Shown here one piece after another: positions 2,722 through 29,203 of a stretch of DNA of 32,000 bases; position 1 is the first letter of the stretch; the number at the start of each line of letters is the position of its first letter. The translations under genes were made by a program, and so were the position numbers. A model generated the notes under the pieces. That model made no database searches, was not told the DNA's origin, and worked only from the letters and a program-made list of their open reading frames with translations. The stretch comes from Geobacter metallireducens GS-15 (GTDB lineage Bacteria > Desulfobacterota > Desulfuromonadia > Geobacterales > Geobacteraceae), in NCBI RefSeq assembly GCF_000012925.1, contig NC_007517.1:780001-812000 (forward strand), written 5' to 3'.

Positions 2722-4374
2722 ATGAGTTTCTGGAACAATCTCAAAGTAAAGGCGAAGCTGCTGATCATGGTGTGCGGAGTGTGCCTCTCGCTCATAGTGG
2801 TCGGGGGATTCGGTCTTGTCAATATGCGAGGCTTGTCCAAGCATATGGGGAATATCAGCTCCGGTATTGAGCATATTGCCCAAGTTTCTGAAATGAAAAG
2901 TGATTTCCTGCAGATGCGGCTCGCATTGGTGTATATGCTGGCACTGACGGATGCCGACAAGATTGAGCAGAAGGAAGGCGAGTTCAAGAAAAGCGCGGCC
3001 TCGATCAAAGAGTCCCTTGACCAGTTTCTGAAATCCGGCATAACCGATGCGGAGAAGGCTCAGATTGCGGAATTCAAGAATGGGTACGATGCCTATGTGG
3101 CGGGTGGGGCCAAACTCGCAGAGATGGCGCGTTCGGCCGCTGCATCCGGAGACGCCGCTTCCCGCGCCGAAGCCGTGGCGTTTGCAACCGGGAGTGTTGC
3201 CCCGCTTTACGACAATCCGGCAAAAATCATCGCTTCCCTTGTGGACGCCAATGTCAAGGATAGCAAAGCGATGTATGCGGAAGATATGGCGTCCTATCGG
3301 CGTGCCCTTGTGGAGATGTCGGTGGTCATGATTGTCTCCATTCTCCTGGCGCTTGCCGGTGGGGGGGCCATTGCCGCCTCCATCAGCCGCCCCCTCAATA
3401 CGGTGCTCGCCATCTTGAGCCGGGTGGCATCCGGAGACCTTACCGCCCGCTCCGAAGTTGATACCGGCGATGAAATGGGAATTCTTTCCCGCCAAGTGAA
3501 CACAACGGCGGAGAAAATGAACGAGATTATCGGACATGTTACCCAGAATGCTTCCCAGGTGACTGCTGCCGCAACGCAACTCCACGCCACTGCCATCCAG
3601 ATGTCCACCGGTGCTGAGGAAGTTGCCCAGCAAGCCGCAACTGTGGCCACTGCCAGTGAGGAAATGGCCGCCACATCGGCGGAAATCGCCCAGAACTGCA
3701 CCATGGCCGCCGAGAGCTCCCGCCACGCCAACGCGCGGGCGGAAACAGGTTCGTCGGTGGTGCAGGAGACCCTTACGGTCATGAACCGGATTGCCGACCG
3801 GGTCCGCTCATCGTCCCAGGCCGTGGGGAGCCTCGGAGCGCGGAGCGACCAGATCGGAGAAATCGTCGGCACCATCGAGGATATTGCCGACCAGACAAAC
3901 CTGCTTGCCTTGAACGCCGCCATTGAAGCGGCTCGGGCCGGCGAGCAGGGCCGCGGTTTCGCCGTGGTCGCCGACGAGGTGCGGGCGCTGGCCGAGCGGA
4001 CCACCAAAGCCACCAAGGAAATCGCCCAGATGATCAAGGCCATCCAGGGAGAAACCAAAGGGGCGGTAACATCCATGGAGGAAGGGGTGAAGGAGGTGGA
4101 GAAGGGGACCACCGACGCTTCCTTGTCAGGTGAGGCACTCCAGGCGATCCTCGAGCAGATCGGCGGCGTTACCATGCAGGTGAGCCAGATTGCCACGGCC
4201 AGCGAACAGCAGACCGCCACCACTTGCGAAATCAGCGAGAATATCCGGCAGATTACCGATGTTGTCGGGCACACTGCCCGGGGAGCAGAGGAGTCGGCCC
4301 AGGCCGCGGAGCAGCTTGCCAGGCTGGCCGAGGACCTCCAGGTTCTGGTGGGGCAGTTCACGTTGGCTGCCTGA
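2722..4374 (+). CDS. Methyl-accepting chemotaxis protein (N-terminal helical sensor, TM2, HAMP, MA signalling domain)
   Basis: Contains two TM segments, a HAMP region ([22 protein letters not shown]) and the highly conserved hairpin tip [48 protein letters not shown]. Confidence 0.92.
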
Positions 4375-7534: not shown

Positions 7535-7975
7535 GTGTCATTTTTTTCAGTTCTCTGCCGTTTGGCCGTCGCCCTCTGGGTGGGAGGCGCCGCCCTGTTC
7601 ACCTTCGTGCTCACCCCCACCATCTTCAGAACCGAAACCCGCGACGTGGCGGGACGCATCGTCGGCTACCTCTTCCCCGGCTACTTCCGCTGGGGGCTGG
7701 CCTGTGGCGCCGTGGCCCTCCTGGCGCTTCTGCTCGCGCGGGGAAAGAACTGGATGCCGGCGGCGGTCCTCCTGGTCGTGATGTTGGCAGTCACCGCGTT
7801 CCAGGCCTTCCATGTGGAGCCGAAGGCCGCTCTTATCAAACAGCAGATTCCTTCCTTCGAAACCACCCCCAAGGATCACCCCATGCGCCGGGAGTTCTCC
7901 AAACTCCACGGCATCTCCGCCGTCTGTAATCTATCGGTCATCGCCGGCGGCGTGGTGCTTATAATCTTGTTGTAA
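7535..7975 (+). CDS. DUF4149 (TMEM205-like) membrane protein
   Basis: GTG at 7535 lies 6 nt after AAGGAGG. The protein SFFSVLCRLAVALWVGGAALFTFVLTPTIF... has four hydrophobic helices and a C-terminal FSKLHGISAVCNL block. Its 3' end is duplicated at 11122-11215. Confidence 0.75.
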   Translation: MSFFSVLCRLAVALWVGGAALFTFVLTPTIFRTETRDVAGRIVGYLFPGYFRWGLACGAVALLALLLARGKNWMPAAVLLVVMLAVTAFQAFHVEPKAALIKQQIPSFETTPKDHPMRREFSKLHGISAVCNLSVIAGGVVLIILL

Positions 7976-8006: not shown

Positions 8007-8040
8007 AGCCCCCCTGGTATCTGCCGGGCGGGGCTTTTTG
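8007..8040 (+). terminator. Intrinsic terminator after the DUF4149 gene
   Basis: AGCCCC...GGGGCT stem followed by TTTTTGTTTG. Confidence 0.5.
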
Positions 8041-8071
8041 TTTGTTCGTTGATAACGAATGGTGTCTCTTG

Positions 8072-8087: not shown

Positions 8088-8256
8088 AAATAGCGCTACG
8101 TGGTGTTTTTGATTGATAATTTCGTTGAATGATTTGCGTTGTTGAGACCTTTGTTTTTCTAAGCTGTTATGAACTTGCGCCAAAAAAGTCACTATGTATG
8201 GCCATTGCCGGACACCGCCAGAAATCGAGAAACCATGGAAAAAAGGGGACACAATG

Positions 8257-8409
8257 ATGAACGGGAAATGGTTGGTGATGATCGGCATGGTTGCCATGAC
8301 CTGCGCTCTTCTCGCAGGGTGTGGTGGTGGCGGTAGCGGCAGTGGGGGAGGGGGCGGCGGAGGAGGCGGCGGCGTAACAACCGGAACAGTTACCGGGACG
8401 GCCAAGTAG
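8257..8409 (+). CDS. Mini-lipoprotein A (50 aa precursor, predicted 29-aa mature lipopeptide, Gly-rich)
   Basis: MNGKWLVMIGMVAMTCALLAG|CGGGGSGSG(G)10VTTGTVTGTAK has a classic lipobox LAG|C. It is paralogous to the 42-aa ORF at 11563. ATG 8254 is an alternative start. The longer track ORF from 8194 is unsupported. Confidence 0.65.
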   Translation: MNGKWLVMIGMVAMTCALLAGCGGGGSGSGGGGGGGGGGVTTGTVTGTAK

Positions 8410-8431: not shown

Positions 8432-10255
8432 ATGAAAAAGAAACTGCTCTCTTTTGCATCTGCCGCCGCCCTTCTGTCGACCGCTGTTGCCCCGGCGGCC
8501 TTTGCGGCAACAGCGCCATTAGCGGACGGCACCTATACGATCACGGTCAGCAAGTTCAATTCCAATGGTACGCTCTCAACGGTGTCGTCGAATTCTGCCG
8601 TTGCGACGGGGGGAAAGCTCGATTTCACCCTCCCGTCCATGCCGACCAGGAACGATGCCAATTTTCTCTTCTTCGAGTTGAAAGGTGTCAACGGAACGGT
8701 TGTGCGGCAGGGATTCGCTCCGGCACCGCCGGCGAGTGCCACCAACAAGCTCGGCATAAACGAGATGTCCGACAAGCAGGCGCAGGTAGTGAAGCAAGCG
8801 GCAGCCCTGGCAGGGAGCGATGATCCGATCCTGATGTCATACCTTCTGGTCATGCTCCGCTCTCCCGATATCAATGATGATGATATCTCCATGATTGCCC
8901 AGATGGGTAAGGCGGGAATTTTGGGTAGCGGTGGTTTTGAAGGTTTTTTGACATCCCCGTCAGGTGGAAACACAACCACCAATCAGTTGAAATCTCTCAA
9001 GGATTGCCTCATCTACAACAGCGATGGGACCCAAAAAACCCTCCGGAGCTTCACGGAAGGGTACTATGACGCTGTCAACATGATGACAGCGGACGAGCAG
9101 AAGGAAATGCAGAGGGCCGGGGGGCTGATGGGTGAAATATTCATCGATGCCGCCACCTGTGCCGGGATCAAGCCCGACCTGGTTCTTGCCGCCCACAATG
9201 CCGCAGGTGTGGCCGTTTATGACGACGAGAGCATGGCAGCCCTAACGGCCCATAATCCCAGCTTTGCCAGCGCCATGGAAAGTGCCATGACCACCTTCCA
9301 CATGAGGATTTCCGCATCGAACCTTGCCGGCGAATATTCCAAGGCGCTGACTGCCCTTGGTGCCTCCGGCAGCCAGGTAACCGATTTCCTCAATGCCAGC
9401 CGGAGCCTCATGACAAGCTTCGAGAGCCTTGACGCCCAGTATGCCGGGTTCTACGCGGATCCGGAGAGCTACGCGGCATCCAAGGGAACGACAGTGGACA
9501 TTGTCCAGACAGAACTCCAGGATGCCTTCCAGGCAGCATTCACTACTTTCCAGGGGGCCATTGCTTCCAAGGCTACCGATATCAGTGCAATGAAAACGGG
9601 TGTCCTGACGATGCTGCCGCCAGGGTCGACGTTACCCAATACCTTCGGGACCTATACGATGTTTGCCGCCCCGGACCAGGCGACGTGTAAAGCCGCCGGC
9701 GGCACGTGGGGAGGGGATTGTGTCGCCAACTGGCCCATTCCCCAGACGGTCATGGTGACGTGGCTGGCAGGCATTCTTGGCAATGGCGGCGACTTTGCCT
9801 ATACGCGGGACACGACGCCGCTTCAGTCTTTCGCCGAGGGGTTCTGGGACGGCGAGTGCACCATAGCCGCGCCGGATCAGGCCGCCTGCACCATGAATGG
9901 CGGCATGTGGACCCAGGCCAGCACCTGCGTAGTTATGACGCAGAAGGGGATGTGCGAGGGGGTAGGCACCTGGAGCGCCCGGCACACGTTCTCATCGGGC
10001 AACGCCGCATTCAATGCCTTCCAGGGGATCCAGGAAGATATCGCGATTCTGGAGATGAAGCGGCAGGCGGAACGGGAGACAATAGCAGCGAGCGAGAAAG
10101 AAGAACAATATAACGAAATGCAGGCCAAAAAGAACTTTGTCGATGGCTTGGCAACGCTCGCAGGCAAAATAACCGGCAGGACCAACGCCACAACCCCTCT
10201 CACCGAGGCGCTGAAGCAGGCGATCATCGCCCTGATGCGGCAACCGAACATGTAG
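8432..10255 (+). CDS. Secreted 607-aa protein of unknown family (beta N-domain, Ala-rich helical core, Cys-loop region); module copy A
   Basis: AGGAAAGGA RBS is present. Signal peptide is MKKKLLSFASAAALLSTAVAPAAFA|AT. It is a full-length paralogue of 11718-13682. No recognisable catalytic motif. Confidence 0.85.
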   Translation: MKKKLLSFASAAALLSTAVAPAAFAATAPLADGTYTITVSKFNSNGTLSTVSSNSAVATGGKLDFTLPSMPTRNDANFLFFELKGVNGTVVRQGFAPAPPASATNKLGINEMSDKQAQVVKQAAALAGSDDPILMSYLLVMLRSPDINDDDISMIAQMGKAGILGSGGFEGFLTSPSGGNTTTNQLKSLKDCLIYNSDGTQKTLRSFTEGYYDAVNMMTADEQKEMQRAGGLMGEIFIDAATCAGIKPDLVLAAHNAAGVAVYDDESMAALTAHNPSFASAMESAMTTFHMRISASNLAGEYSKALTALGASGSQVTDFLNASRSLMTSFESLDAQYAGFYADPESYAASKGTTVDIVQTELQDAFQAAFTTFQGAIASKATDISAMKTGVLTMLPPGSTLPNTFGTYTMFAAPDQATCKAAGGTWGGDCVANWPIPQTVMVTWLAGILGNGGDFAYTRDTTPLQSFAEGFWDGECTIAAPDQAACTMNGGMWTQASTCVVMTQKGMCEGVGTWSARHTFSSGNAAFNAFQGIQEDIAILEMKRQAERETIAASEKEEQYNEMQAKKNFVDGLATLAGKITGRTNATTPLTEALKQAIIALMRQPNM

Positions 10256-10268
10256 GCAACCGGCGGGT

Positions 10269-10290
10269 GCGGGCGGCATGATCCGCCCGC
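10269..10290 (+). terminator. Perfect GC hairpin between the large gene A and the TonB-like gene (possible attenuator or partial terminator)
   Basis: GCGGGCGG-catgat-CCGCCCGC followed by gcttctttacc. The first in-frame ATG (10278) sits in the loop. Confidence 0.4.
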
Positions 10291-10301
10291 GCTTCTTTAC
10301 C

Positions 10302-11039
10302 ATGGACACGATTCAGCGTTTCATTATAGCTTCTCTGGCGCTCCACGGGGTGATTCTCGCCGCCGTTTCCTCGTATGATTCCATGACAGCCAGGCGCCAC
10401 AGGGTTCAGACCGCCAACTGGGTTGTGGACGTTATTACGGACATACGCAGCGAGCAGGCGGGGCCCGATAACAGCGCGGCAGTTCAGGACCAGGAAGTTC
10501 TGCCATCCCAGGATGAACCGCAGTCGCAGCCGCCCCCTGAATCTGCTGCCCCTGCGGAACTCCCCCCTGACGCCCCCCCCGCGCCTGTCCCTCCCGCCAG
10601 CCAGGCCGATCCATCAGTCGGCTCAACTGGAACCGGCGGGCAGGCGAGCGCCCCTGTCAATACCGTTGCCCTGACCGGCGCCTTTCTCAGCCAAGGGTTT
10701 CGCAACACCATGAATGCCCAGGCCATAGTCGCGCAGCTGGGGAACTACCGGAGGGTTTCGGGTCTGGCTCTCAAGGGGATGGTCTCGCAGGCCCTTCCCG
10801 CCGAAGAGCGTCAGCGGCCGGACGAGGTTCGGGGTACCGTTCTGGTAACCTTCCAGGACGGCGCTGTCGCCTCCCTTTCGGTGGAGTCGGAGGACGAGCA
10901 GTTCCGCTCCCTCCTCCGTGACCGGATCGACTGGAGCCTCCTCCCGGCGCCGCGCCAGTTTTCCCTCCCCATTTCCCGTGTCGCCTGTACGGTCAGCGTC
11001 TCCAACGGCAAAATCAGGGTCGGGGTCGGTCCGATCTGA
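10302..11039 (+). CDS. TonB-like protein (N-terminal membrane anchor, Pro-rich spacer, C-terminal TonB_C-like domain)
   Basis: MDTIQRFIIASLALHGVILAAV is the anchor. QPPPESAAPAELPPDAPPAPVPP is the spacer. GTVLVTFQDGAVASLSVES...LLPAP is the tail. The start at 10302 is preferred because 10278 lies in the hairpin loop. No exbB/exbD genes are in the window. Confidence 0.6.
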   Translation: MDTIQRFIIASLALHGVILAAVSSYDSMTARRHRVQTANWVVDVITDIRSEQAGPDNSAAVQDQEVLPSQDEPQSQPPPESAAPAELPPDAPPAPVPPASQADPSVGSTGTGGQASAPVNTVALTGAFLSQGFRNTMNAQAIVAQLGNYRRVSGLALKGMVSQALPAEERQRPDEVRGTVLVTFQDGAVASLSVESEDEQFRSLLRDRIDWSLLPAPRQFSLPISRVACTVSVSNGKIRVGVGPI

Positions 11040-11056
11040 TTTTTCCTTATCACCTC

Positions 11057-11215
11057 ATGGACTCCACGGCCGACACTCTCGGCCTCCCGGTGTCGCGCCC
11101 CCTTGCCCTTGCCAACAAGCGCCCCAAGGATCACCTCATGCGCCGGGAGTTTTCCATGATCCGCCGCATGCAACCTGTCGGTCATCGTTGGCGGGGTGGC
11201 GTTGGTTATTCTACG
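11057..11215 (+). pseudogene. Duplication-junction scar: 5' fragment of the DUF2156 gene fused to a 3' fragment of the DUF4149 gene
   Basis: 11057-11120 aligns with 13857-13920 (MDSTADTLGLPVSRPLALANK versus MDPMTDIPGFPAARPLFLADK). 11122-11215 aligns with 7867-7975 (PKDHLMRREFS versus PKDHPMRREFS) and is then frameshifted. Confidence 0.8.
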
Positions 11216-11283: not shown

Positions 11284-11562
11284 GAATGCACAGGGTCAGT
11301 GCAGTCTGGCGCTATTCATTAAGCAGTGAACGGTGTTTTGTTTTTTGTGCGGCTTGATAACGTTTGGTAACTCCTGATTGCGGTTGGTTATTTCGTTTCT
11401 GGTTTTGTACGGCGACAAGTGCGTTAACTGGAGCTGTTGTGTGTGTTTGTAACAATTTTTTTCTAAAGTTTTGCCAATATATGCCGAATCAAAATCTACA
11501 GTCATCAACTTGGAACGAAGACAACAGTTGCAGTTCAATAGCGAAAGAGGAGGTACGGAACG

Positions 11563-11691
11563 ATGAACAAGAAATGGTTGGTTATGATCAGCATGGTTGT
11601 CATGGCCTGCGCTCTTATAGCCGGGTGTGGTGGCAGTAGTGGCGGCTCGGGCGGCGGAACGACGGGAACGATTTCAGGGACTGCCAAGTAA
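11563..11691 (+). CDS. Mini-lipoprotein B (42 aa precursor, predicted 21-aa mature lipopeptide)
   Basis: Below the ORF-track size cut-off. AGAGGAGG lies 8 nt upstream. ATG 11563 to TAA 11689-11691 encodes MNKKWLVMISMVVMACALIAG|CGGSSGGSGGGTTGTISGTAK. It has the same lipobox and C-terminal motif as copy A. Confidence 0.7.
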   Translation: MNKKWLVMISMVVMACALIAGCGGSSGGSGGGTTGTISGTAK

Positions 11692-11717: not shown

Positions 11718-13682
11718 GTGAAAAGAAATCTCATGACGTCCATTGGTGCCGCCGCCCTTGCTACTGCCCTGGTCGGGCCAGCCTCGGCCGCGCCAGCCGA
11801 CCCGTTGGCAGCCAACACTCAGTATGCCGTTTTGGTCAAAAAGATGAACAGCGACGGCTCTACGACGCTGGTTGATTCGGCTAACGCCACCACCGATGCC
11901 GATGGCAAACTCACCTTCAACTTCACCACAATGCCCACCAGGCCCGATACCAATTTCATTGTCTTCGAGGTGAAGGATACCAACAGTACCGTCCGGCAGG
12001 GAATCGCGCCGGCTCCCCCGGAAAACGACCCTAACCTTCTTGGCATCAACAACCTCTCCACAGTCCAGACGAAGGCGCTCCTGGCCGCGGCTGCCGAAGC
12101 CGGCAGTGACGACCCGATCATGATGGCCTATGCCCTGACGCTGCTCCGTTCTCCCAATGCGACGGCGGATGACACCACCATCATTGGCAAGCTGGGCAAG
12201 GGGGCAATCATTGGGGGATTCGAGGCGTTCCTCACGGACCCGGCCAAGGGGAACGTGAGCACCGAGGGATTGGCGAAGCTCAAAGAGTGCCTGGTATACA
12301 ACGAAACCGAGGGGGCCAAAACTCTCCGTGACTTCACCGAAAGCTTTTACAATGCCAACGCGGCGTCCAGCGATGCCGCTGCCGACCAAGAGATGCAGAA
12401 GGCCGGCGGGTTCATGGCCGAGATGTTCATGGATGCGGCCAAATGCGCCAATATCGACCTGGGGCTCATCAATGCGGCCCACAATGCGGCGGGAGACGCC
12501 GCCGAGGCGATTGAGGATCCTCCCGGCACTCCCATCATGACCGGCCTGAGTTCGGCGGTTCAAATTGCCATTGAGCAGGCCATGTCCACCTTCCACAAGA
12601 GGATTGCCATCGTCAAGGTGTCCGGCGAGTATAGCAAGGCCCTCGCCGCCCTGAATGCTTCCGGTGCCGAAAGAGACAGGTTCCTTGCCGCCGTTAATGA
12701 CGTGGCAACGGCCATGGGAGCGGTGGAATCACAATATGCCGGCTTCTATGTGGACCCTCAGGCCTATGCGGATGCCAATTACCCCGGGGCGGGAGATGCA
12801 AATGCGCGTATTGCCGCGGCGCAGGCGGACATAGACGCCGCATACCAGACTGTCTGGAACAATTTCATGACGGCCATGGCTTCCACCGATGATGACATAA
12901 CCGCCATGAAGGCGAAGGTGGTTGCCGGCTTCGGTTTTTCACCGGGCCAGTTGCCGTCTGATTTCGGGAAATTCATGAACTCGGAAAGTCAGAGCATCAA
13001 CTGGCCCATTCCCCAGACGGTCATGGTTTCATGGCTGGGAGACCTGATGGGGGGGGGTGGGACGTTCAGCTACCTGAACAACCGGGACGATACCCCCATT
13101 CCCAACTGGGTAACGTGGATGGGAAGTTGCACCAAGGCCGCTGATCTGGCTACGGCGTGTGCGAGTTTTGGCATGACTTGGGGCGGAAACAACTGCGTGA
13201 CGCCCATACCTGACCAGCTAACCTGCGAACAACGCTCTAATCTTTTTTGGTCGGGAAGCAGTTGCCTGGTGAGCACCGACGCGCTAGGGGCGAGTGCCTG
13301 CCAGGGCGGATCGTACTACGACGCAGCCAGTGGCAAATGCGTCGTGATGGGACAAATGCAGGACACGTGTGGTATCGCTGGAGGGACCTGGACCACCGCT
13401 CGCACCGACTACTCGTCAATGCCGGCCCAGATGGGTGCATTCCGCGATCTGCTCGCCTTGCAGGAAGACATCAATATCATTGATTTTGAACGGATGAGCA
13501 TCTGGCAGGGGGCGGGGGCAAACCCGACCGGAGCGGAAGAAGCTGCCGCAAAGCTTGCATTCGAGCAAAACCTGGCCTCCATCAAGAATAACATTGCCGC
13601 CACCACCAACGGCACCACGTCCATAACCGCCGAGCAGAAGGCAGCCATCGTCAAGCTGATCATGCAGCCCAGTATGGACTGA
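11718..13682 (+). CDS. Secreted 654-aa paralogue of the 8432-10255 protein; module copy B
   Basis: GTG start lies 8 nt after GGAGGG. Signal peptide is MKRNLMTSIGAAALATALVGPASA|AP. It is collinear with copy A and has an expanded Cys-loop region (8 Cys versus 6 in that region). Confidence 0.85.
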   Translation: MKRNLMTSIGAAALATALVGPASAAPADPLAANTQYAVLVKKMNSDGSTTLVDSANATTDADGKLTFNFTTMPTRPDTNFIVFEVKDTNSTVRQGIAPAPPENDPNLLGINNLSTVQTKALLAAAAEAGSDDPIMMAYALTLLRSPNATADDTTIIGKLGKGAIIGGFEAFLTDPAKGNVSTEGLAKLKECLVYNETEGAKTLRDFTESFYNANAASSDAAADQEMQKAGGFMAEMFMDAAKCANIDLGLINAAHNAAGDAAEAIEDPPGTPIMTGLSSAVQIAIEQAMSTFHKRIAIVKVSGEYSKALAALNASGAERDRFLAAVNDVATAMGAVESQYAGFYVDPQAYADANYPGAGDANARIAAAQADIDAAYQTVWNNFMTAMASTDDDITAMKAKVVAGFGFSPGQLPSDFGKFMNSESQSINWPIPQTVMVSWLGDLMGGGGTFSYLNNRDDTPIPNWVTWMGSCTKAADLATACASFGMTWGGNNCVTPIPDQLTCEQRSNLFWSGSSCLVSTDALGASACQGGSYYDAASGKCVVMGQMQDTCGIAGGTWTTARTDYSSMPAQMGAFRDLLALQEDINIIDFERMSIWQGAGANPTGAEEAAAKLAFEQNLASIKNNIAATTNGTTSITAEQKAAIVKLIMQPSMD

Positions 13683-13739: not shown

Positions 13740-13785
13740 CAGCGTCTCCAACGGCAATATCCGGGTCGGGGTCGGCCCGAGCTGA
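13740..13785 (+). pseudogene. 46-bp remnant of the 3' end of a second TonB-like gene
   Basis: CAGCGTCTCCAACGGCAATATCCGGGTCGGGGTCGGCCCGAGCTGA aligns with 10994-11039 (CAGCGTCTCCAACGGCAAAATCAGGGTCGGGGTCGGTCCGATCTGA), including the stop codon. Confidence 0.8.
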
Positions 13786-13856
13786 TTTCTTGCCTCACCG
13801 CCTCAGGGGAAATTTGTCCGCCGCTCTCCTCTCCGCGTCTGCTATACTCTTTCCCC

Positions 13857-14747
13857 ATGGACCCCATGACCGACATCCCCGGCTTTCCGGCGGCGCGCCC
13901 CCTTTTCCTCGCCGACAAGCCCTTCTTCGCCGCCGTTTTTGCCGAACTCCAGCCCCGGGTCTCGGAGCTTACCTTTGCCAATCTCTACCTCTTCCGGGAG
14001 GCCCATGACTATCGGCTCACCCGGGTGGGTGACTCCCCCGTGGTGCTCGGAAAGGGGTACGACGGCGAGGAGTACTTCCTCCCTCCCCTCGGTGGAGATG
14101 TGGCTGGTGCCCTCCGGGTGCTCCTTGATGCAGGGATGACCCTCTACGGGGCCGACGAGCCCTTTGTGTCCCGGTACCTGGCCGTCGGGGGGGTGGCCGT
14201 GGAGGAAGACCGGGATGCCTTTGACTACCTCCACCTCCGGCAGGCACTGGCGGAACTCCCCGGCAACCGCTTCCACAAAAAGAAAAACCGGATCAACTAT
14301 TTCACCGCTCGGCATTCCTTCAGCGTGGTTCTTTACGGCGAGGCCCACCGCGATGGCTGCCTGGCGCTCCTCGACGAGTGGCGCCGGGTCCGCAACGGTA
14401 TCGACAGCCCTTCCCTGGAACTGGAGACGAAGGCAGGGGCGGAGGCCCTCATGCTCGCGGACCGCCTCGGCCTCGAAGGGGTGGTGGTGCTCGTGGAGGG
14501 AGGGGTGGCTGCCTTCGCCCTGGGGGAGCGGCTCAATCGCGACACGTCGGTCTGCCATTTCGAGAAGAACGATCCGTTCATGGAAGGGGTTTCCCAACTG
14601 GTGGACCGGGAGTTCAACCGGCTCCTCTTCACCGACTGCACCTGGACGAACCGCGAGCAGGACCTGGGGGAACCGGGGCTGCGGGCGGCGAAGCTCTCCT
14701 ACCATCCGGATGAACTGGTGAAGAAGTATCGGGCACGCAGGGTGTGA
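13857..14747 (+). CDS. DUF2156 protein (lysyl-phosphatidylglycerol synthase C-terminal-like / GNAT-like fold)
   Basis: Contains FANLYLFR, FHKKKNRINYF and NREQDLGEPGLRAAKLSYHP blocks typical of DUF2156. Confidence 0.7.
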   Translation: MDPMTDIPGFPAARPLFLADKPFFAAVFAELQPRVSELTFANLYLFREAHDYRLTRVGDSPVVLGKGYDGEEYFLPPLGGDVAGALRVLLDAGMTLYGADEPFVSRYLAVGGVAVEEDRDAFDYLHLRQALAELPGNRFHKKKNRINYFTARHSFSVVLYGEAHRDGCLALLDEWRRVRNGIDSPSLELETKAGAEALMLADRLGLEGVVVLVEGGVAAFALGERLNRDTSVCHFEKNDPFMEGVSQLVDREFNRLLFTDCTWTNREQDLGEPGLRAAKLSYHPDELVKKYRARRV

Positions 14748-16480: not shown

Positions 16481-18787
<2,307 letters not shown>

Positions 18788-27669: not shown

Positions 27670-28707
27670 ATGACGTGTGAGGCGTTGACGGCGCAGCCAA
27701 GGTCTATGGGGGGGTACACGCTTGTCGAGGTGCTTGTGGTCATCGTTATTCTGGCGGTGATCAGTGCCGGCTTGTCCACTGTGTTCATCACCGGGCAGAA
27801 AGAGTATGGCGTGCGTGAGGCTACCATCAGGATGCAGCAGCAGGCACGGCAGGCCATGAACGAGATGGAGCGGGAACTTAAAAACACCGGCTACGGCCTC
27901 ATGGATATGGGCGACCTGACTGTCAAAGTTTACAAGTCTAGCGGGGCCATTCCCTCCTGGCAGGTGGTCGAGGCGTCGGATGGCGGCACTGAGCCCGACT
28001 CGATCAAGGTCCTGTACAGCGGGGCCGAGAGCGACGTGGGATATGATTATATCGTTTCCGTGGATCACCCTACAAGTTCAGCGCTCATGCTGGTCAGCGC
28101 CGTTGGCTCCGTCCCCCCCTCGCGCACGCTCAATGACGATTTCATAAAAGGAGACCTGTTTCTCGTCTACGATCCGAGCGATCCGGGGAAGCCGGCTACG
28201 CGCTTTCAGGCGACGAATGTTACAGCTCCCGACAAGATCCATCACAACCCCGGAGGGTATAATCCTTCAGGAGGAACTCTCGACGTCGCGTACGGCGTTG
28301 GAAGCAAGGTTCTCAACCTGAGGCTGATGCAGGCGAAAAGTGTGTCATATTCAGTGGATGCCCGGCAGAACCTGATCAAGACCGTCGAAGACCTCAGCCT
28401 GATTGACCCTCCGGCAAATCAACGCACGAAAATAGTAGCATCCGGCGTCGAGGACCTTCAGATACGGTATCAGTTTAAGGACGGCACGTGGAAGAATGCC
28501 GGCGATCCCGGTTTCGTTGCGAAGGACCTTCGAGCGATTCAGGTGAGCATCATTGTCAGGACCGAAAAGCCCGATCCCCGCTATCCTGGGCAATCTCTTC
28601 AACTGACGGGCTCCTATGGCAATGGCGGAGTGAAAAATTCGGCAGGTTACCGCAGGATGGCCATGAGCACGATCATCTATGTGCGCAATCTTGGGTTCCG
28701 GGACTAG
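27670..28707 (+). CDS. pilW: Type IV pilus minor pilin / assembly protein, PilW-like
   Basis: Contains the motif ..RSMGG|YTLVEVLVVIVILAVISAG. The protein is 345 aa. Gene order matches pilV-W-X-Y1. Confidence 0.55.
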   Translation: MTCEALTAQPRSMGGYTLVEVLVVIVILAVISAGLSTVFITGQKEYGVREATIRMQQQARQAMNEMERELKNTGYGLMDMGDLTVKVYKSSGAIPSWQVVEASDGGTEPDSIKVLYSGAESDVGYDYIVSVDHPTSSALMLVSAVGSVPPSRTLNDDFIKGDLFLVYDPSDPGKPATRFQATNVTAPDKIHHNPGGYNPSGGTLDVAYGVGSKVLNLRLMQAKSVSYSVDARQNLIKTVEDLSLIDPPANQRTKIVASGVEDLQIRYQFKDGTWKNAGDPGFVAKDLRAIQVSIIVRTEKPDPRYPGQSLQLTGSYGNGGVKNSAGYRRMAMSTIIYVRNLGFRD

Positions 28708-28711
28708 TTGC

Positions 28712-29203
28712 ATGGGGGGACGGGTGCTGAATGAGCGGGGGGCTGCGCTGGTCGTGGCGATCATACTGCTGATGGTCCTCACCATCCTGATGACGGTACT
28801 GAATCATGCGACCCTGTATGAAATGATTTCAAGCCGCACTTATCAGGAATCCCAGCGGGCTTTCTACGCAGCCGAGACAGGGGTCCGCGATGCCCTGGAA
28901 TGGCTCGGAAAGCAGAATTCCCCGCCGGAAACCACCATCACCCCCCCCGGCTGGTTTTATGACGGGACCGTGGCGCGCAAGGACGCCACGTGGTGCTCTT
29001 GGCAGACAGTGGAGGATATCCATTTCCGGTACTATATCGAACACCTGAAAGACGCCCCGAATTACAACATGAGTAGCACCATCGGCAAGAACTCCAAGGG
29101 GCCGAAGAGCGTCCAGCACTACTACCGCATAACGGTCGACGGGGCCAACAGCACCTATCTGGTGCACAGGCAGGTCCAGGTCGTGACGACCGCCTACTGG
29201 TGA
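28712..29203 (+). CDS. pilX: PilX-like minor pilin (PilX_N-type N-terminus)
   Basis: MGGRVLNERGAALVVAIILLMVLTILMTVL matches the ERGxALxVALxxLxVLT PilX N-terminal pattern. ATG 28712 lies just after the pilW stop. Confidence 0.6.
   Translation: MGGRVLNERGAALVVAIILLMVLTILMTVLNHATLYEMISSRTYQESQRAFYAAETGVRDALEWLGKQNSPPETTITPPGWFYDGTVARKDATWCSWQTVEDIHFRYYIEHLKDAPNYNMSSTIGKNSKGPKSVQHYYRITVDGANSTYLVHRQVQVVTTAYW

Follow-up and report, generated by a model that had tools for sequence, protein, structure and literature searches.

A small lipoprotein gene of Geobacter metallireducens paired with the gene for a large exported protein in a candidate cell-envelope module

A 32,000-nucleotide stretch of the genome of Geobacter metallireducens GS-15 (contig NC_007517.1, positions 780,001 to 812,000; called the window here, with positions counted from its first letter) holds two copies of a very small lipoprotein gene, each just upstream of a gene for a large exported protein, and a gene for a TonB/TolA-like protein lies between the two pairs (Table 1). 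The subject of this work is the second small gene (copy B, 11563-11691), the translated product of which is MNKKWLVMISMVVMACALIAGCGGSSGGSGGGTTGTISGTAK, with copy A giving MMNGKWLVMIGMVAMTCALLAGCGGGGSGSGGGGGGGGGGVTTGTVTGTAK, each ending at a stop codon. Both products have a basic n-region, a hydrophobic core, a lipobox (AG↓C, the arrow marking the predicted cleavage), Gly at +2 and then a Gly/Ser run; the signal of copy B consists of MNKK, WLVMISMVVMACALI and AG↓C in that order, with an equivalent layout in copy A. Both precursors thus show the basic start, the hydrophobic stretch and the lipobox [LVI][ASTVI][GAS]-C, inside about the first 35 residues, that mark substrates of Lgt and LspA. Translation reproduced what a model's sequence-only reading of this DNA had listed for the two open reading frames (ORFs), namely the lipobox with Gly at +2, mature lengths of 21 and 29 residues, 10 consecutive Gly residues in copy A and the common tail TTGT[VI][TS]GTAK followed by a stop, and the proposal that these are paralogous lipoprotein genes holds (78% DNA identity over 106 nucleotides (nt), with a common design). 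Copy B had also been credited correctly with a ribosome binding site of its own (GAGGAGG, 9 nt before the ATG), and the gap from the small stop codon to the start of the large gene is 22 nt for copy A and 26 nt for copy B. The description of copy B as unannotated was mistaken, its exact sequence of 42 amino acids (aa) being present in NCBI and UniRef, with an orthologue, WP_281415114.1, that is called a "hypothetical protein". No exact match to the copy A product, taken from starts giving 50, 51 or 71 aa, was found in a collection of 15 billion proteins; this copy seems to be uncalled, or called from another start, in public annotation, and several metagenomic members of the family also had no entry in that collection.

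Table 1. Coordinates of the module and of its repeat scars within the window
Feature	Position	Strand	Description
DUF4149 gene, 3' end (scar)	7867-7955 ~ 11122-11199		Repeat scar
Small lipoprotein gene, copy A	8254-8409	+	51-aa precursor (ATG 8254) or 50 aa (8257); 29-aa mature lipopeptide (predicted)
Copy A lipobox Cys	8320-8322		Followed by 10-Gly run
Copy A conserved tail	8383-8406		GTVTGTAK
Large partner protein A	8432-10255	+	607 aa; Sec-type signal peptide, N-terminal beta domain, helical body, Cys-rich region
TonB/TolA-like gene	10278-11039	+	253 aa; N-terminal transmembrane helix with S-x3-H, Pro-rich spacer, C-terminal alpha/beta domain
TonB/TolA-like gene, 3' end (scar)	10994-11042 ~ 13740-13788	+	Repeat scar; 49 nt, 92% identical
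LPG_synthase_C gene, 5' end (scar)	11053-11120 ~ 13853-13920		Repeat scar
Shine-Dalgarno sequence of copy B	11547-11553	+	GAGGAGG, 9 nt 5' of ATG
Small lipoprotein gene, copy B	11563-11691	+	42-aa precursor, 21-aa mature lipopeptide (predicted); from translation
Copy B signal peptide			aa 1-21
Copy B lipobox Cys22	11626-11628		
Copy B tether	11629-11664		Gly/Ser/Thr
Copy B conserved tail	11665-11688		GTISGTAK
Copy B stop codon	11689-11691		
Large partner protein B	11718-13682	+	654 aa; cognate of small gene B

The family was sampled by tracing homologues of the large protein (53 clusters) to their contigs, to which a metagenome scan added 66 more loci, and the family statistics given here are for 53 unique peptides from Geobacter hydrogenophilus and about 60 metagenome loci; the taxonomic breadth rests on the metagenome loci, a scan of genome contigs with narrow peptide patterns having recovered G. 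hydrogenophilus only. This species holds both small and large pairs. Its copy A orthologue lies at 3817-3972 of locus L001, and its copy B orthologue, also of 42 aa, is 95% identical with mostly synonymous changes (6 synonymous and 2 conservative in the codon-level comparison that the sequence-only reading had proposed). The small ORF is conserved in orthologous loci, with its frame intact and its C-terminus exact in about 60 of them, and the position just 5' of the large gene that had been noted in the window is kept across the family, at 1-61 nt in essentially every locus with upstream sequence and even between large proteins that are only 34-45% identical. A scan for the tail motif on the + strand of 72 sequences returned 64 ORF ends, 63 of which were directly 5' of a large-gene homologue, the remaining one being a false positive.

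Lipoprotein features were present in 53 of 54 unique members, the lone exception having no Cys. The Cys is preceded by G, A or S in 53 of 53 (position -3 of the signal being relaxed in some members) and is directly followed by GG in 48 of 53. The mature peptides are 19-33 residues long with a tether that is 79% Gly plus Ser, in line with the earlier impression that the ends are kept and the linker drifts. Counting back from the stop codon, the consensus of the last eight residues is G-[TNS]-[VI]-x-G-[SNT]-[AGV]-x, with G at -8 in 49 of 53, T, N or S (occasionally G) at -7, V or I at -6 in 51 of 53, a variable residue at -5, G at -4 in 53 of 53, S, N or T at -3, A, G or V at -2 and a variable final residue (K, E, N, S, D, R). 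All four Gly codons are used for the invariant Gly(-4) (GGA 23, GGC 21, GGG 5, GGT 5), all three stop codons are used across the family and a Shine-Dalgarno-like motif lies 5' of 46 of the 53 chosen starts, and therefore selection is on the peptide and not on the RNA or DNA. Fusion of the small and large genes by a programmed frameshift or by readthrough is ruled out, as the frame offset between them is 0, 1 or 2 depending on the locus and the large protein comes with a separate signal peptide and Shine-Dalgarno sequence. Judged from these sequences, each small ORF is a predicted translated lipoprotein precursor, the gene for which is inherited, and presumably co-transcribed, with that for a large Sec-exported protein of ~560-650 aa and is functionally tied to it.

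Profile searches with the small ORFs found one further true member (P0055, 45 aa); the other matches were generic lipoprotein signal peptides or Gly-rich repeats, small low-complexity proteins being beyond this approach. At one metagenome locus (L067, 1368-1622) there is a small ORF with a hydrophobic segment, a Gly/Ser run and a tail-like GASISASAD that has no lipobox Cys; some 140 nt separate it from the large gene, and it may be either a member that has degenerated or the result of a sequencing error.

Large proteins A and B share 45% identity, and the signal peptide of each is of the ordinary Sec type. Neither Pfam nor NCBIfam gave a family above cut-off for the large protein, the PDB gave neither a sequence-profile relative nor a significant Foldseek match, and none of 53 homologues had a Pfam domain. 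Stray matches to HBL/NheA in both paralogues at residues ~118-156 were not significant (E ~0.1). The AlphaFold2 model of large protein B has a mean predicted local distance difference test score (pLDDT) of 83. In it, an N-terminal beta domain begins right after signal-peptide cleavage (DSSP strands 35-43, 49-58, 80-86 and 91-98), with a conserved GKLxFxL segment at 63-69 left unpaired, and is followed by an invariant P-A-P hinge, a large helical body, a Cys-rich region that varies in length and, at the C-terminus, conserved helices. Many residues of the N-terminal domain are invariant across homologues. Its sole structural matches in Foldseek were to the macroglobulin (MG) domain MG4 (probability 0.84) and to transthyretin (0.35), both with E > 1, and Pfam gave only the sub-threshold Ig-like families FlgD_ig, Big_6 and Big_1. 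The sequence-only reading had likened the peptide tail to the first strand of Ig-like or carboxypeptidase-regulatory-like domains and had linked it on this basis to the large protein, which does open with a small beta domain. A tail-like string, VTGTVSGTAVKGPV, also occurs in an unrelated longer lipoprotein (P0061), where it opens the body of the protein right after a Gly/Ser linker.

Two other regions of the large protein deserve description. The mature N-terminus follows the pattern (A)-L-[TNS]-x-[GN]-x-x-Y-[TS]-[IV] (residues ~27-36 in the product of 11718-13682, with an equivalent in that of 8432-10255), with an invariant Leu just past the predicted signal-peptidase site, in a segment of low pLDDT before strand 1. 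This segment could be an epitope for binding, one candidate partner being a TonB/TolA-like domain if the N-terminus of TolB is taken as the analogy. The Cys-rich region of copy B (13100-13400) has an insertion of ~60 residues with extra Cys pairs relative to that of copy A (9800-9950), and this variation in length suggests a modular disulfide-rich insert; typical metagenomic large proteins are shorter overall, at ~545-577 aa.

The TonB/TolA-like gene is a third partner gene that the sequence-only reading overlooked. All 26 unique homologues (25 by script and one, L033, by eye) carry an S-x3-H signature at the start of the transmembrane helix, reading SLALH in the window protein, and this Ser and His belong to the Ser-His-Leu-Ser motif that engages the stators in TolA and TonB (PMC7391070). 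The spacer at ~60-125 is rich in P, A, Q and E and disordered in the model, and it leads to a C-terminal domain of ~100 residues (pLDDT ~90), the top Foldseek matches of which were C-terminal domains of FusB, TolA, TonB and HasB (probabilities of 0.80-0.94 for the top three, with E-values of 0.06-1). Pfam matches were weak only, the best being TonB_2 at an E-value of 0.018 (in 2 of 16 members) and TolA_C at 0.16. The gene adjoins the small and large pair, either directly downstream or divergently upstream, and was detectable in 20 of the 30 loci with at least 1 kilobase (kb) on both flanks; of the ten other well-flanked loci, the nine that were checked had no SxxxH candidate. The gene is thus frequent in the module and not obligatory. 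Neither ExbB/ExbD nor TolQ/TolR was found among the window ORFs scanned or, in three loci, the neighbours called there. Since TonB genes often stand as orphans, missing stator neighbours are compatible with membership of the TonB/TolA group.

The two pairs in the window descend from one ancestral unit (DUF4149 3' end, small gene, large gene, TonB/TolA-like gene, LPG_synthase_C) that was tandemly duplicated, because repeat scars of 77-92% identity, ~2.7-3.3 kb apart, remain at three sites (Table 1). Both small and large pairs are intact and the second TonB/TolA-like copy has decayed to the 49-nt remnant at 13740-13788, a longer fragment of it being kept after the B pair in G. hydrogenophilus (L001, 9294-9515). 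A terminator-like hairpin and T-run (TCTGCCGGGCGGG GCTTTTTGTT) at 8020-8042 lies just 3' of the DUF4149 gene, and therefore transcription of small gene A probably begins separately. Upstream of both copies A and B there is a short TTTTTCTAA...TTGCC element, which G. hydrogenophilus also has. Further along the window an IS110-family transposase gene (DEDD_Tnp_IS110 and Transposase_20) lies at 16552-17736, 2.9 kb downstream of the module, and two neighbouring genes at 27670-29203, with a type IV pilin-like N_methyl motif and a PilX_N domain, look like a minor-pilin or pseudopilin cluster.

As to how the small product might work, established lipoprotein biogenesis predicts that processing by Lgt, LspA and Lnt would leave an acylated peptide of 19-33 residues, with the lipid on its Cys, then ~10-24 residues of flexible Gly/Ser tether and last the fixed octapeptide G-[TNS]-[VI]-x-G-[SNT]-[AGV]-x-COOH. 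The Gly residues at +2 and +3 suggest sorting to the outer membrane by the rule established for E. coli, which may not be that of Geobacter. The octapeptide would form an amphipathic beta-strand, with small or hydrophobic residues (G, V/I, G, A) on one face and polar ones on the other, and this strand would dock by beta-augmentation on a conserved surface of the large protein, the likeliest site being the N-terminal transthyretin/MG-like beta domain, so that the large protein would be held to the membrane by the lipopeptide, an anchor separate and detachable from it. We consider this reading, a detachable tether docking its C-terminal strand onto the large protein, to be a plausible one that falls a little short of probable. 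The fixed distance from the motif to the C-terminus and the invariant Gly(-4) fit tight packing of a terminal strand. The large protein is favoured as the primary partner because the small and large pair is universal and the TonB/TolA-like gene is present in 20 of 30 loci, because the pair outlived the duplication and the second TonB/TolA-like copy did not, and because an invariant tail matches a well conserved large protein better than it does the C-terminal domain of the TonB/TolA-like protein, which evolves fast. The small N-terminal beta domain of the large protein, with only four assigned strands, its unpaired GKLxFxL segment and its MG4, transthyretin and sub-threshold Ig-like matches, would further suit it as a docking site. 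Where the TonB/TolA-like inner-membrane protein is present, in about two-thirds of loci, it may then couple the complex to a motor driven by the proton-motive force in a Tol-Pal-like layout. A bolder and doubtful extension would make the three genes a Tol-Pal-like force-transducing module, in which the single C-terminal strand of the lipopeptide is a latch that holds the large periplasmic protein, and the TolA/TonB-like protein, powered by the proton-motive force, engages or releases the latch through the tail or through the invariant-Leu N-terminus of the large protein; no lipoprotein "domain" with specific protein docking that is smaller than this octapeptide would then be known.

Several observations weigh against docking on the large protein or give it no support. 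Mutual information between the tail and columns of the large protein (52 pairs) gave top columns that were scattered, with a mean for the N-terminal domain about equal to that for the rest, and this covariation signal was dominated by phylogeny. Appending the tail to the N-terminal domain in a Pfam scan brought no clear gain: with the tail in front, one sub-threshold Ig-like match rose slightly, and with the tail behind there was no rise. From its sequence, the first strand of the domain (YTITIQK) could already fill the "strand A" position, and the domain may be complete alone or may be without a different strand. None of ~53 homologues showed the small and large proteins naturally fused, which gives no Rosetta-stone support. 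The TonB/TolA-like partner would be an equally precedented docking site.

This last point leads to the most direct competitor, in which the tail would be a strand resembling a TonB box or TolB box that docks on the C-terminal domain of the TonB/TolA-like protein, making the lipopeptide the outer-membrane end of a trans-envelope link with the large protein as a third component or cargo. TonB/TolA C-terminal domains bind short peptides by beta-strand augmentation (PMC7391070), and therefore the product of 10278-11039 is a rival docking site for the tail. Its S-x3-H signature in every homologue, its Pro-rich spacer and the FusB, TolA and TonB/HasB matches of its C-terminal domain all count in favour, as does the Geobacter layout, which is suited by one common TonB/TolA-like protein and two nearly identical tails. 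GTISGTA also has a superficial resemblance to the FhuA TonB box DTITVTA. This explanation must however account for the ten of 30 well-flanked loci that keep the pair with no TonB/TolA-like gene within +/-3.5 kb, and for a C-terminal domain that is poorly conserved (16-30% identity between loci) when the tail is nearly invariant; moreover, known TonB and TolB boxes are N-terminal rather than C-terminal and have no invariant central Gly, and each of the Foldseek E-values is non-significant. We regard it as rather unlikely, if the strongest of the competitors.

Strict gene pairing and a conserved tail would also be explained by a recognition tag, and the lipopeptide might accordingly be a substrate, cargo or ligand that the large protein carries, processes or exports and that then acts alone in the membrane or at the surface. 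Very small lipoproteins acting alone exist (entericidins, LptM), and the large protein, being big, mostly helical and with no known relatives, could have an enzymatic or carrier role; as Pfam, NCBIfam and PDB profiles gave it no signature of a catalytic or carrier family, and a Gly/Ser spacer that is of low complexity and varies in length is commoner in tethers than in active peptides, we find this distinctly unlikely. It is also very improbable that the small ORF is a regulatory upstream ORF, that is a secretion-monitoring or translational-coupling leader like SecM, VemP or MifM, with a product that has no role of its own. Its place 1-61 nt before the large start, its export signal and the conserved C-terminal motif beside the stop would suit such a leader, which would however have no need of a conserved lipobox Cys with GG at +2/+3. 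Arrest peptides typically carry Pro, Trp or Arg residues, and the tail is without these; the large gene has its own Shine-Dalgarno sequence, spacing and frame differ between loci, and no terminator-like site or Rfam element was found between the ORFs, nor any Rfam match in the window. That the small ORFs are functionless, arising by chance or as decaying stubs of a split lipoprotein gene, is hardly credible: a GC-rich genome yields many spurious ORFs and a low-complexity Gly run could stem from a repeat, but the frame and exact C-terminus are intact in ~60 loci with large proteins 34-50% identical and selection is at the amino-acid level, so that this idea is effectively refuted by the motif scan, the family conservation and the codon evidence.

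The small gene marks an undescribed cell-envelope module, built from known kinds of parts, in Geobacter and many sediment and groundwater bacteria. The two larger proteins of the module have no assigned family, the TonB/TolA-like one matching the TonB and TolA families only weakly. Genes of fewer than 50 codons are systematically under-called, and several members of this family, including copy A, are outside the public protein collection; the near-invariant eight-residue tail illustrates that so small a gene can rank among the most constrained elements of its locus. If the tether model is true, the module would be a natural case of a lipoprotein divided in two, the lipid anchor being generic and the body detachable, the 8-residue docking tag would be of practical interest, and the system would offer an entry point to energy coupling of the TonB/TolA type beyond nutrient import and cell division.

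Among described families, the closest match to the small proteins was NCBIfam NF058595 "invert_tail" (lipo-invert putative C-terminal anchoring domain), which was matched by 38 of 38 members scanned (best E 1.8e-07) over the hydrophobic helix, the Cys, the Gly/Ser run and part of the tail (model positions 52-90/99). The cut-off of this model is 37 bits, and copy B (26.8 bits) and copy A (17.2 bits) both score below it; the match takes in only about a third of the 113 positions of the model and is made here by the N-terminal segment of a 42-51-aa protein and not by a C-terminal domain. Because of these sub-cut-off scores and the partial, N-terminal match we do not place the small proteins in NF058595. 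Literature searches on "lipo-invert" and on an inverted or C-terminal lipobox found nothing relevant. The small lipoproteins LptM (YifL), EcnA/B and Lpp are alike in having precursors of ~40-70 aa and a short mature peptide as the functional part, and 14 of 38 members gave weak matches to the LptM model, all sub-threshold and within the signal peptide. No specific sequence feature is common to these known lipoproteins and the present family: none of them combines a Gly/Ser tether with a G-x-V-x-G-S-A-x C-terminus, and none is obligately paired with a large exported protein of the present family. The final residue of the tail varies (K, E, N, S, D, R), and therefore cross-linking through a C-terminal Lys of the Lpp type is not conserved.

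In chaperone-usher and type V pili, as would be the case here, a short strand of another polypeptide completes an Ig-like sandwich, and pilus donor strands, like the tail, have alternating small or hydrophobic residues and a conserved Gly. The module differs from these systems in having no pilin, chaperone or usher genes, and its putative donor would be a free lipopeptide. In TonB-box recognition a short strand of alternating residues is edge-paired to a C-terminal domain of the TonB type (PMC7391070). The module departs from this in placing its motif at the C-terminus of a lipopeptide and not at the N-terminus of a barrel plug, in the invariant central Gly of the tail and in having no TonB-dependent transporter.

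Tol-Pal offers the nearest comparison. Both systems have an inner-membrane protein, a periplasmic protein and a lipoprotein, and in both the inner-membrane protein has a transmembrane helix with S-x3-H, a long spacer and a small C-terminal domain; in Tol-Pal, TolA binds its partner by beta-strand augmentation (PMC7391070). The module is unlike Tol-Pal in having no TolQ/TolR or ExbB/ExbD in the scanned parts of the window, in a periplasmic protein that is no TolB-like beta-propeller and matches no known fold, in a lipoprotein that is merely a peptide of 19-33 residues with no OmpA-like peptidoglycan-binding domain, and in a TonB/TolA-like gene that is missing from a third of loci. The architecture of the triad is thus closest to that of Tol-Pal, with every component except the TolA-like one being different.

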